A DNA stretch of 24,013 bases from Candidatus Pacearchaeota archaeon ex4484_31 (GTDB lineage Archaea > Nanobdellota > Nanobdellia > Pacearchaeales > UBA284), in assembly GCA_002254805.1 (NCBI GenBank), contig NJDW01000001.1:1-24013 (forward strand), given 5' to 3'. This document shows, piece after piece, positions 14,677 through 19,270 of this stretch (positions are counted from its first letter, which is position 1; every line of letters begins with the position of its first letter). The position numbers were made by a program, and so were the translations under genes. The notes under the pieces were generated by a model, which worked only from the letters and a program-made list of their open reading frames with translations, had not been told where the DNA came from and did not search any database.

Positions 14677-16141
<1,465 letters not shown>

Positions 16142-16173: not shown

Positions 16174-16259
16174 GGGCCCGTAGTTCAACTGGTAGAACGC
16201 TGCCCTTGCAACATCTGCAAGAAAGGCAGAGGTTCCGTGTTCGAATCACGGCGGGTCCA
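16174..16259 (+). tRNA. tRNA-Ala(UGC) with a 13-nt intron at 37/38 (16211-16223); CCA not encoded
   Basis: Acceptor GGGCCCG/CGGGTCC with the G3:U70 alanine determinant. D arm GTTC/GAAC, anticodon stem CTGCC/GGCAG, anticodon TGC at 16207-09, T arm CCGTG-TTCGAAT-CACGG, discriminator A16259. Confidence 0.93.
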
Positions 16260-16320: not shown

Positions 16321-19270
16321 GACACCATAGTAAGTAGTGGCAAGGCTGCTAGATGGATGGCTCGGCTTGGGCTGCGACGAAGGACGTGGCAAGCTGCGAA
16401 AAGGCTAGGGGAGATGCATGCAATCTTTGATCCTAGCATCTCCGAATACGAGAACGGGCTATCCGAAGAGGATAGCATTCAGCTGCAAAAAGCAGCTGAA
16501 GGTCCACGCCGGGAATTGAAACATCTTAGTACCGGCAGGAAAAGAAAGCAAAATGCGATTCCCTGAGTAGCAGCGAGCGAAAGGGGAGGAAGGCAAACCG
16601 AATCCTTTAGCGAAAGCTAAAGGAGATGTGGAGTTGAGAGTGGGCAGGAGCACAGCTAAGCTGCCGAAGCCGAAGTTGCCTGGAATGGCACACCATAGAG
16701 GGTGAAAGTCCCGTAGGCGTAGGCAGTATGCTGATTTCCTGCTCCAAGAGTAGCGTATCCTGGTTTGGATGCGCGAAGGCGGCTCAACTAAGAGCCAACC
16801 TTAAATATGAGCCCAAGTCCGATAGCGCACTAGTACCGTGAGGGAATGCTGAAAAGAACCCTTGGCAGGGAGTGAAAAGACCTGAAATCTAGCAGCCATA
16901 GTGTGTTACAGCTCCCTTTTGGGAGTTGTAACGTCCGTTTTGAAGAACGGGCCAGGGAGTTAGGCTAAGTGGCGAGGTTAAGCCTCTTTTGAGGCGGAGC
17001 CGTAGCGAAAGCGAGTCTGCTTATTCCAGCTTTATGCTGGAAGAGGCAGAGCATCCGAAAGGGTGTAAGTCACTTGGCCTAGACCAGAAACCAGGCGACC
17101 TACTCCTGGCCAGGGTGAAGCCTTCCTAACGGAAGGTGGAGGCCCGAACCAGTGTTGCGGGCAAGCACTTGGATGAGCTGGGAGTAGGGGTGAAAAGCCA
17201 ATCTAGCCTGGCGATGGCTGGTTCCTGCCGAAATATACCTCAGTATAGTCTCTTGCTAGCTTGCTAGCGAGGTAGAGCTACGGATTGGGCATGCAGGCAG
17301 CTTTGCTGTCGGTGCCCTTTCCAACTCCGAATGCGCTAGCAGCGTAGCAAGGGAAACAGGGCTGGGGGGTAAGCTTCCAGTCCGAGACCCGAACAAGGGA
17401 GACTGGGGTTAAGGTCCTTAAATGCTGGCTAAGTGCAAAGCAAGGCAGTCCTGATCCTGAGACAGCGGGGAGGTAGGCTTAGAAGCAGCCATCCTTTAAA
17501 GAAAGCGTAACAGCTCACCCGTCGAGGATCAGGGCGCCGAAAATCGACGGGGCTAAGCCAGCTACCGAGACCCCAGCGTTCCTCGAAAGAGGAACGGGTA
17601 GGCAGGCGTGCTGCTTGGGCAGAAGCATGCTTGTAAGAGCATGTGGACCGAGCAGCAATGAGAATCCTGGCGCTAGTAGGATCCTACTCAGGTGAGAACC
17701 CTGAGGGTCGGAAGGGCAAGGGTTCCTTGGCAATATCGATTAGCCAAGGGTTAGCCGGTCCTAACCCTGCCCTTAACTGAGGCAGGGGAAGGGGAAGCAG
17801 GTTAATATTCCTGCGCTACTTAAGACCGTTGAAGCTGTTAGGGACGCTTCGGGATAAGCAGAGTGTATCTCGTAAGAGACATCCCTTGCAAGAAGGCCAT
17901 GGAGTATCGTAATGATGAGAAGTGGCTGAATTGCAAGGGCGAAAGTCTGCTGATTCCTGGAGCCAGTGAAAACCTAACAGCAGAGGTCTTAAGTAACCGT
18001 ACCCAGAACCTGCACTAGTGCCCTCCCTGAGTAGGGGAAGACCTGAAAGTTTAAGGCTGGTAAGGGAAATCGGCAAATTGGCCTCGTATCTTCGGTAGAA
18101 GAGGTGCCTATGCTTGTGCCTTTGATTCTTTTGAATTGAAGGTGCAAGCGTAGGTCGCAGTGACAAGGGCGGCCCGACTGTTTATTAAAAACGTAGCCAA
18201 GCGCAAAGCCGAAAGGCTTGGTACGCTTGGTGAGGCCTGCCCAGTGGTGGTGTTTGAAGGCTCCTTTCAAGGAGCTTAAGACCCACCAAACGGCGGGCCT
18301 AACCTTGAGGCTCTTAAGGTAGCGTAATGCCTTGTCGTCTGAATGGCGACGTGCATGAATGGCTTAACGAGGTCGCCACTGTCCCTACCAGCCAGCTTCC
18401 GAACGTCTCTTCCTGGTGAACAGGCCAGGGACGCCCAGTGGGAAGCGAAGACCTTGTGGACCTTTACTGCAGCCTGTTGTTGTGTTTTGCGATTGGGTAC
18501 AAAGAGTAGCTAGGAGGGATGAAATGAAGCTTCGGCGTAGTGGACCGAAAGTGTAACACTAGCTACCCTTTTGCAAAACACTCACTCGAAAGAGGACAGC
18601 AGCAGGTGGGCAGTTTGGCTGGGGCGGCACCCTCCCGAAAAGATATCGGGAGGGCCCAAAGGTGAGCTCAGCGTAGTTGGAAACTACGCGTAGAGTGCAG
18701 GGGCAAAAGCTCGCCTGACTGTGGCTCGAAAAGAAAGAGCCGCAGGCGCGAAAGCGTGGCCCAGCGAACCCTAATGGCTCTTTAGTGGAGCCTTAGGATG
18801 ACAGAAAAGGTACCCCAAGGATAACAGACTGGTCGCGCCCGATAGTTCACATTGACGGCGCGGTTTGGTACTCCGCTGTCGGCTCTCCCTATCCTGGCTG
18901 TGCACAAGCAGCCAAGGGTGCCGGGGTTCACGCATTAAAAGGGATCGTGAGCTGGGTTGAGAACGTCGTGAGACAGTTTGGTTGATATCTACTGGGCGTG
19001 TTGTTGCCTGAGTGGAACCAAGCCGTAGTACGAGAGGAACCGGCTTGGGGGGCCTCTGGTCTAGCGGTTGTCCTAACAGGGCAGGCCGCGCAGCTACGCC
19101 CTGGTGGATAAGGGCTGAATGCATCTAAGCCCGAAGCCACCCGCAAAAAGAGGCAACAAAGGCCGTCCAAGAAGAGGACGTTGATAGGGCCGGGGTGTAA
19201 GTGCCGAGACGCAAGTCGAGGCATTCAGCCCGCGGCTACTAAAAGCCTCATCACTACTTACTATGGTGTC
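16321..19270 (+). repeat. 19-bp perfect inverted repeat enclosing 23S rRNA (processing stem): 16321-16339 / 19252-19270
   Basis: GACACCATAGTAAGTAGTG is the exact reverse complement of CACTACTTACTATGGTGTC. Confidence 0.92.
16343..19248 (+). rRNA. rrl: 23S rRNA (ends approximate)
   Basis: GGATGGCTCGGC near the 5' end, GAAACATCTTAGTACC, GTPase centre CTTAGAAGCAG/GCGTAACAGC, PTC GGATAACAG and sarcin-ricin loop AGTACGAGAGGAAC. Terminal helix AGGCT/AGCCT lies inside the processing stem. Confidence 0.95.

Follow-up and report, generated by a model that had tools for sequence, protein, structure and literature searches.

Core nucleotides of the ribosome's active site, known as its peptidyl transferase center (PTC), show lower conservation in archaea than they do in bacteria (bioRxiv 10.1101/2024.11.12.623245). 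That work, an alignment of archaeal 23S ribosomal RNA (rRNA) sequences from GTDB, revealed clades within the Thermoprotei and Methanomethylicia that carry up to six changes at positions 2447 to 2453 and 2500 to 2504 (Nissley et al. 2024). In Escherichia coli, A2453 pairs with U2500 and pseudouridine 2504 with C2452; in the structure from Pyrobaculum calidifontis, C2499 is joined by C2453, C2500, and C2504 in a new network of hydrogen bonds, and a shorter loop of ribosomal protein uL3 brings greater tolerance of PTC changes (bioRxiv 10.1101/2024.11.12.623245). An E. coli in vitro assay placed A2503 and U2586 among the mutationally flexible positions of the PTC ring (d'Aquino et al., PMC7049736). 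The text of the 2024 preprint mentions neither position 2503 nor DPANN archaea (Diapherotrites, Parvarchaeota, Aenigmarchaeota, Nanoarchaeota, Nanohaloarchaeota), and our literature search found no paper on active-site variation in DPANN. Here, we analyzed the 23S rRNA gene on a 24,013-nucleotide stretch of DNA from Candidatus Pacearchaeota archaeon ex4484_31, a member of the DPANN order Pacearchaeales (contig NJDW01000001.1 of assembly GCA_002254805.1, positions 1 to 24,013; the whole stretch is hereafter referred to as the window).

In E. coli numbering, which is used throughout, the central loop of this gene reads UCCGCU at positions 2499 to 2504 where the canonical hexamer is CUCGAU, a triple substitution (C2499U, U2500C, and A2503C), and position 2586 is G. 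These bases and their numbering had been proposed from the letters without database searches (we refer to this earlier account as the sequence-only reading); ungapped alignments to a covariance model and to the E. coli gene, together with landmark positions, bear them out, G2586 included, and a table of alignment columns likewise confirms that A2451, C2452, U2506, U2585, and A2602 are retained. The triple is not special to this genome, as the order and its class, Nanoarchaeia, vary at these positions, and a tree of the order shows UCCGCU at five or more separate places. Because supporting positions vary lineage-wide while the catalytic bases are fixed, the window represents a further case of natural archaeal active-site variation, and the description “naturally remodelled PTC” given in the sequence-only reading was a fair one. 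We consider it probable that the second shell of the active site is evolving fast under weak constraint in a functional ribosome.

The likeness to the divergent PTCs of Thermoprotei and Methanomethylicia lies in clade-wide substitutions within 2447 to 2453 and 2500 to 2504 with catalytic function kept, which for the window is judged from its sequence. As in those clades, substitutions that are rare in archaea (C2500 in 3 and C2503 in 7 of 107 non-DPANN archaea) occur here across a whole clade. Furthermore, the window genome has U2500C and a short archaeal uL3 loop in common with P. calidifontis. However, Pacearchaeales (and Nanoarchaeia) are a different clade from those described, and the sites differ: 2499, 2503, and 2586 are changed, with 2576, 2552, and 2058/2059 added in relatives, whereas 2447, 2453, and 2501 are unchanged in the window. 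Many interchangeable states are found in Pacearchaeales, in contrast to the one derived sequence of the described clades.

Active-site variation in Pacearchaeales and other archaea

The canonical hexamer was found in none of the 30 full 23S genes of Pacearchaeales, which carry AUCGCU, AUCGCC, UCCGCU, UUCGCU, AUCGAC, GUCGCU, or CUAGAC. Position 2499 in these genes is A in 19, U in 9, C in 1, and G in 1; 2500 is U in 24 and C in 6; 2503 is C in 27 and A in 3; and 2504 is U in 17 and C in 13. Variation extends to 2586 (A in 24, C in 3, G in 3), to 2059 (column of 18448 in the window; A in 17, G in 9, U in 4), to 2058 (column of 18447; G in 23, A in 4, U in 3), and to 2552 (A in 17, G in 13), which is the near-universal 2'-O-methylated uridine of the A loop elsewhere. 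When the patterns were scanned against 401 genomes of the order, the site was located in 166; among the 150 matches listed, C2503 is present in all and the canonical hexamer in none, and a hand count gave C2500 in 27. At 2576 (column of 18949 in the window), U is the majority base in Pacearchaeales (25 of 30, the other 5 having G) and is present in 6 of 11 other DPANN archaea sampled, with G kept in the window; G2576U is the classic oxazolidinone (linezolid)-resistance change.

To set a baseline, a collection was scanned with a pattern tied to the conserved flanking sequence, which gave 120 stretches, and 163 domain-V segments were aligned, with columns tabulated for 107 non-DPANN archaea, the 30 Pacearchaeales, and other DPANN archaea. 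In the non-DPANN sample, 2499 is C in 82, U in 23, and A in 2; 2500 is U in 104 and C in 3; and 2503 is A in 100 and C in 7, making U2500C the rarest of the three changes there. Position 2504 is U in 102 and C in 5, 2576 is G in 103 and U in 2, 2586 is U in 102, A in 2, and C in 1 (n = 105). At 2552, 104 of 107 sequences have U, and at 2059, A is present in 98 of 98. Neither UCCGCU (0 of 107) nor G2586 (0 of 105) occurs in this sample. Bases at 2060 to 2063, 2447, 2450, 2451, 2454, 2498, 2502, 2505 to 2507, 2553, 2583 to 2585, and 2587 are invariant in every group, and the first shell of the active site (2061 to 2063, 2447, 2450, 2451, 2505 to 2507, 2553, 2583 to 2585, and 2602) has the canonical bases throughout, both in the window and across the 148 sequences compared.

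A class-level sample of 200 further genomes contributed 51 matches from outside the order, which were tallied by hand. In these other orders of Nanoarchaeia, 2499 is A in 24, U in 14, G in 9, and C in 4; 2500 is U in 47, C in 3, and A in 1; and 2503 is A in 35, U in 12, and C in 4. Only 2 of the 51 have the canonical hexamer. The claim of the sequence-only reading that the substituted nucleotides are almost invariant is thus overstated for Archaea, given C2499 in 82 of 107 non-DPANN archaea and in 4 of 51 of these matches; the overstatement is less for 2503, where C is found in Methanomassiliicoccales. U2503 was observed in other orders of the class in the hexamers UUCGUU, GUCGUC, and GUCGUU (e.g., G436, G451, G467, G494, G549, G554, and G570), so that A, C, and U all occur at 2503 inside one class.

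The individual changes have natural counterparts outside DPANN. U2499 is likewise present in Methanobacteriales, some Methanosarcinales, and Thermoplasmata (23 of 107 non-DPANN archaea), and eukaryotic 25S/28S rRNA also has U2499. Lineages of this methanogen/eukaryote type usually have U2453 (AACUG or AAUUG), whereas the window has A2453, and an A-U pair with U2499 is therefore possible. The seven C2503 cases comprise five with UUCGCU, from Methanomassiliicoccales and other Thermoplasmata, and two with UCCGCC, from archaeal metagenome-assembled genomes. The 23S genes of Methanomassiliicoccales/Methanomethylophilaceae (L064, L071, L082, L135, and L160) combine U2499 and C2503 naturally, as does the window, but they keep U2500, U2586, U2552, G2576, and A2059. 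These carriers of UUCGCU are free-living or gut methanogens, showing that C2503 is natural outside DPANN; we found no paper describing it in Methanomassiliicoccales.

Exact UCCGCU with archaeal flanks was detected on approximately 14 archaeal contigs when 185,579 species genomes were scanned. By record title, nearly all are from DPANN, and they include one Nanohalarchaeota contig and one Aenigmarchaeota contig (L051). The possibility that bacteria have the same PTC was considered and rejected: 15 exact 20-mer matches, all but one bacterial by title, lack 23S similarity and are attributed to chance, approximately 35 such matches being expected in 596 Gb by a rough estimate.

Two further observations concern the genes that were collected. 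Pacearchaeales 23S genes of 3.4 to 4.2 kb, compared with the usual ~2.85 kb, are present at L024 to L030 (G053, G012, G042, G051, G035, G031, and G033), a span that implies insertions or introns. Some large-subunit rRNA genes do not fit the names of their bins: those of L053 (a “Promethearchaeota” bin, 3.8 kb) and L062 (“Desulfonema”) are of Pacearchaeales type, those of L106 (“Sphingobium”), L139 (“Omnitrophota”), and L152 (“Bacillota”) are of other archaeal types, and that of L100 (“Berkelbacteria”) looks eukaryote-like. Mis-binning is the most likely cause in all six.

The 23S rRNA gene of the window

The 23S gene matches RF02540, the Rfam model of archaeal large-subunit rRNA, across the entire model length, at a score far above the gathering cutoff of 50 bits (Table 1), and no other 23S copy was found in the assembly (279 kb, 33 contigs, 59% complete). 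The window reads TTTGGTACTCCGCTGTCGG at 18864 to 18882. Infernal aligned the site without gaps, placing ACUCCGCUGUCGG in the window against the consensus ACcUCGAUGUCgG, and the alignment to E. coli 23S is also ungapped, with CACCTCGATGTCGG in E. coli against TACTCCGCTGTCGG in the window; together these rule out an alignment shift. Numbering was set by the landmarks A2451, U2552/G2553, G2576, and U2585 because the E. coli copy used runs 2 nucleotides (nt) ahead of conventional numbering.

On the strand from 2496 to 2507, C2498, C2501, G2502, and U2504 to C2507 are all canonical, and A2455 pairs with U2496. The sequence-only reading had pointed out that A2444/A2445 are compensated by U2066/U2065; Infernal raises no mismatch flag against these pairs, and the U2065-A2445 pair is fixed in 30 of 30 Pacearchaeales. 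Changes in helix 89 of the window fall in paired columns (18839/18857). Elsewhere in this helix, 18843 and 18853 are both U in 30 of 30 Pacearchaeales and G and C, respectively, in other archaea, which would amount to a fixed U-U if 18843 faces 18853; Infernal flags two nonstandard pairs there. Judged by its sequence, the gene looks like the working 23S rRNA gene of a Pacearchaeales (Nanoarchaeota, DPANN) archaeon.

Table 1. Positions in the window of the rRNA operon and of the active-site elements discussed in the text
Feature	Position	Strand	Remarks
23S rRNA gene, full length	16329..19262	+	RF02540, 2561 bits, model positions 1-2987
Central-loop strand 2496-2507 (UACUCCGCUGUC)	18869..18880	+	U2499 = 18872, C2500 = 18873, C2503 = 18876
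Central-loop strand 2447-2455 (GAUAACAGA)	18820..18828	+	Canonical G2447, A2450, A2451, C2452, A2453
Strand 2057-2066 (CGAAGACCUU)	18446..18455	+	Archaeal-type G2058, A2059, G2061, A2062, C2063
A2444/A2445, helix 74	18817..18818	+	Compensating partners of U2066/U2065 (18455/18454)
G2586, tunnel entrance	18959..18959	+	Adjoins U2585
G2552, A loop	18925..18925	+	Part of the same lineage-wide pattern
16S rRNA	14677-16141	+	One operon with spacer transfer RNA (tRNA) and 23S
Spacer tRNA	16174-16259	+	Between 16S and 23S, common operon

The letters themselves recur in independent data. A stretch of ~1 kb is almost complete in five or more DNA metagenome runs, whose labels are marine, marine sediment, hydrothermal vent, and, in one case, a coded organism; the source of the window may itself be among them. 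Three metatranscriptome runs contain 79 to 85% of the sampled words. Contigs from two independent DNA runs cover 18603 to 18917 with zero differences, and two RNA libraries yielded contigs of 821 and 531 nt (word depths of 163 and 31) that cover 18606 to 19137, again with zero differences. In each case the evidence consists of contigs from an assembler rather than reads, and DNA may be present in an RNA library. Contigs from other runs list no alternative letter at 18864 to 18885 or at 18959. These identical contigs argue against assembly error, against a pseudogene, and against C-to-U editing that would restore U2500.

That the triple is an artifact, through faulty assembly or binning, a chimeric sequence, or a pseudogene copy in decay, is scarcely credible. 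The bin is fragmentary, so a second rRNA operon is possible, but the full-length model match and the compensated helices, the identical contigs in independent DNA runs and RNA libraries, and the same hexamer in approximately 14 other archaeal assemblies all speak for a genuine sequence. We accordingly rejected assembly error, editing, and a pseudogene, and the sequence-only reading was right to regard the gene as functional looking and correctly assembled.

Accounts of second-shell turnover

The number of changes at each position was counted, as a minimum, on a maximum-likelihood 23S tree of 30 genomes of the order. Positions 2499 and 2500 require six changes each, 2504 requires four, and 2501 and 2503 require one each. 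UCCGCU has two separate places in family f1, to which the window belongs, and one apiece in f7, f5, and f3, and the 23S closest to that of the window is only 82% identical to it. Divergence is not confined to the central loop: in a 571-nt stretch of domain V with 241 columns at least 97% conserved in the 107 non-DPANN archaea, 31 of these columns differ in Pacearchaeales; the window shows departures at 20 (8%), scattered from helix 74 to helix 93, several of them as compensated pairs.

The bases responsible for chemistry and for holding tRNA ends are unchanged, and it is the second shell that differs. Positions 2499 and 2500 buttress A2453, C2452, and U2504, and 2503 and 2586 line the tunnel entrance; all would be weakly constrained and would turn over quickly within a general acceleration of rRNA evolution in archaea that have tiny genomes and are probably host dependent. 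UCCGCU would then be one of approximately 10 interchangeable states. “Symbiont drift,” one of the causes offered by the sequence-only reading, is the one that fits the data best. Archaeal ribosomes are able to accommodate such changes because their local architecture permits other hydrogen-bond networks, with base 2504 flipped and a uL3 loop shorter than the one in E. coli, as in P. calidifontis (Nissley et al.). A2453 would lie opposite C2500 instead of U2500, with U2499 available as an alternative Watson-Crick partner, and we infer a local re-pairing of A2453 with U2499. UCCGCU co-occurs with CA, UA, CU, or UU at 2452/2453, so no single pairing rule explains the hexamer, and a strict pairing logic between 2500 and 2453/2452 was rejected on account of these four combinations.

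Several points weigh against fast evolution under weak constraint. Our samples are phylogenetically unbalanced. The collection patterns demanded GTCGG at 2505 to 2509 in addition to conserved flanks, which inflates the apparent invariance of 2505 to 2507 and makes the test weak at 2505 to 2509. C2503 is nearly fixed and requires one change on the tree, and it is therefore constrained to a new state, not free. Weak constraint as a cause is something we infer from the pattern. Finally, the variable positions 2058, 2059, 2452, 2453, 2499, 2500, 2503, 2504, and 2576 are classic drug-resistance positions, and selection by natural inhibitors would therefore predict the same pattern.

Selection of this kind, in which the substitutions confer insensitivity to natural inhibitors of the A-site cleft or the tunnel entrance and form an intrinsic resistance trait of the lineage, seems to us unlikely. 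Lab-selected mutations at the nine variable positions cause resistance to phenicols, oxazolidinones, pleuromutilins, anisomycin, sparsomycin, and macrolides, and 2499, 2500, and 2503 are presumably nucleotides that contact or shape the drug site. The presence of U2576 in 25 of 30 relatives is in line with such selection, and the repeated switching at 2499 and 2500 could reflect selection that changes. Also in its favor, halophilic archaea tolerate such mutations, single PTC changes being viable in them (Nissley et al., bioRxiv 10.1101/2024.11.12.623245). Lab-selected PTC mutants of halophilic archaea and bacteria involve the same positions (2452, 2453, 2499, 2500, 2503, 2504, and 2576), but they are single selected changes whose drug phenotype was measured and which often impair growth, whereas the changes in Pacearchaeales are natural, combined, and lineage wide. 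Divergence, however, reaches beyond the drug pocket, to the 31 conserved domain-V columns and the A loop, and resistance positions are mutable positions anyway, so that the two sets would coincide even in the absence of selection. Neither an inhibitor nor its producer nor a phenotype is known, and the window keeps G2576, A2059, C2452, and A2453. A likely side effect of the changes, and not their demonstrated cause, is an altered pocket for drugs of the active site, and drug insensitivity may be a by-product of the changes.

The triple might also be a coevolved set that compensates for a changed partner, which could be a ribosomal protein tip (the finger of uL3), an rRNA modification that has been lost, or a different base of the rRNA, although we regard this as distinctly improbable. 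The uL3 protein of the window genome (322 amino acids; L179:283-1248, contig C4 of G000) aligns without gaps to Pyrococcus/Thermococcus uL3 through the GPW..AGQ finger, and its loop next to the PTC has the short archaeal length. The finger keeps its Trp, with Thr as the next residue (GPWTP) in place of the His of Pyrococcus/Thermococcus. Across 35 genomes, the residue after Trp is H, T, N, I, or S, and His is absent from four of the six UCCGCU genomes compared. U2552 and U2586, both of which are modified uridines in Haloarcula, are replaced throughout the order. The sequence-only reading had suggested inspecting the uL3 loop for compensation; variation in the finger was indeed seen, but clean covariation of the finger residue with the rRNA hexamer was absent among the 35 genomes, UCCGCU occurring alongside T, N, and H at this uL3 residue as well as all four 2452/2453 combinations. 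Moreover, Methanomassiliicoccales have C2503 alongside A2059 and an otherwise canonical pocket. A change in the release-factor GGQ motif was rejected as an explanation because the GGQ of aRF1 is canonical in five relatives, three of which carry UCCGCU; aRF1 was not found in the incomplete window genome.

Other features of uL3 were seen in single genomes. The finger Trp is lost in two proteins, those of G409 (GPDVP) and G058 (SSFGL). One Pacearchaeales genome has an in-frame TGA inside its uL3 match (L196, G052:C1:66242-67165), which may reflect an error in sequencing, recoding, or a gene that is broken.

Adaptation to heat, with more C and stronger or alternative pairs, is a very improbable cause. 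The runs that contain the sequence include hydrothermal-vent and marine-sediment metagenomes, known divergent active sites belong to hyperthermophiles, and record titles point to hot-spring or Guaymas-type samples for several of the other genomes with UCCGCU. Among the 30 genes, the two with the highest 23S GC content (the window at 54% and L002 at 56.5%) both carry UCCGCU, but the other four UCCGCU genomes have a 23S GC content of 44 to 46%. 23S GC does not separate C2500 from U2500 (Mann-Whitney p = 0.63), which leaves a link to thermophily through this measure unsupported, and the related AUCGCU and AUCGCC are dominant in low-GC groundwater and lake lineages. Neither heat nor compensation of a partner found support in the small tests run.

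Turnover at individual positions may be part of something larger. We raise, tentatively and with some doubt, the idea that the tunnel-entrance face of the active site has been systematically rebuilt in Pacearchaeales and, loosely, in all Nanoarchaeia. The proposal draws together the near fixation of C2503, the presence of U2576 in most members, the replacement of U2586 and U2552, the variability of 2058/2059, and the free switching at 2499, 2500, and 2504. Our literature search found no description of such an architecture. If real, it would alter the sensing of nascent chains and the pocket common to most PTC-targeting drugs, and it would provide a ready-made series of viable multisite variants for ribosome engineering.

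Significance for DPANN ribosomes

The finding alone shows neither a new mechanism nor a resistance trait. Its novelty lies in the clade and in the positions (2499, 2503, and 2586 in the window; 2576 and 2552 in relatives), as well as in the many interchangeable states. It bears on what is assumed about “universal” rRNA sites in primers, probes, and alignments, and it offers a natural map of viable second-shell combinations that is of use in ribosome engineering and for understanding the plasticity of the drug pocket. The active site is usually treated as frozen; like some hyperthermophilic archaea (2024 preprint), DPANN archaea of the Pacearchaeota type break that rule.

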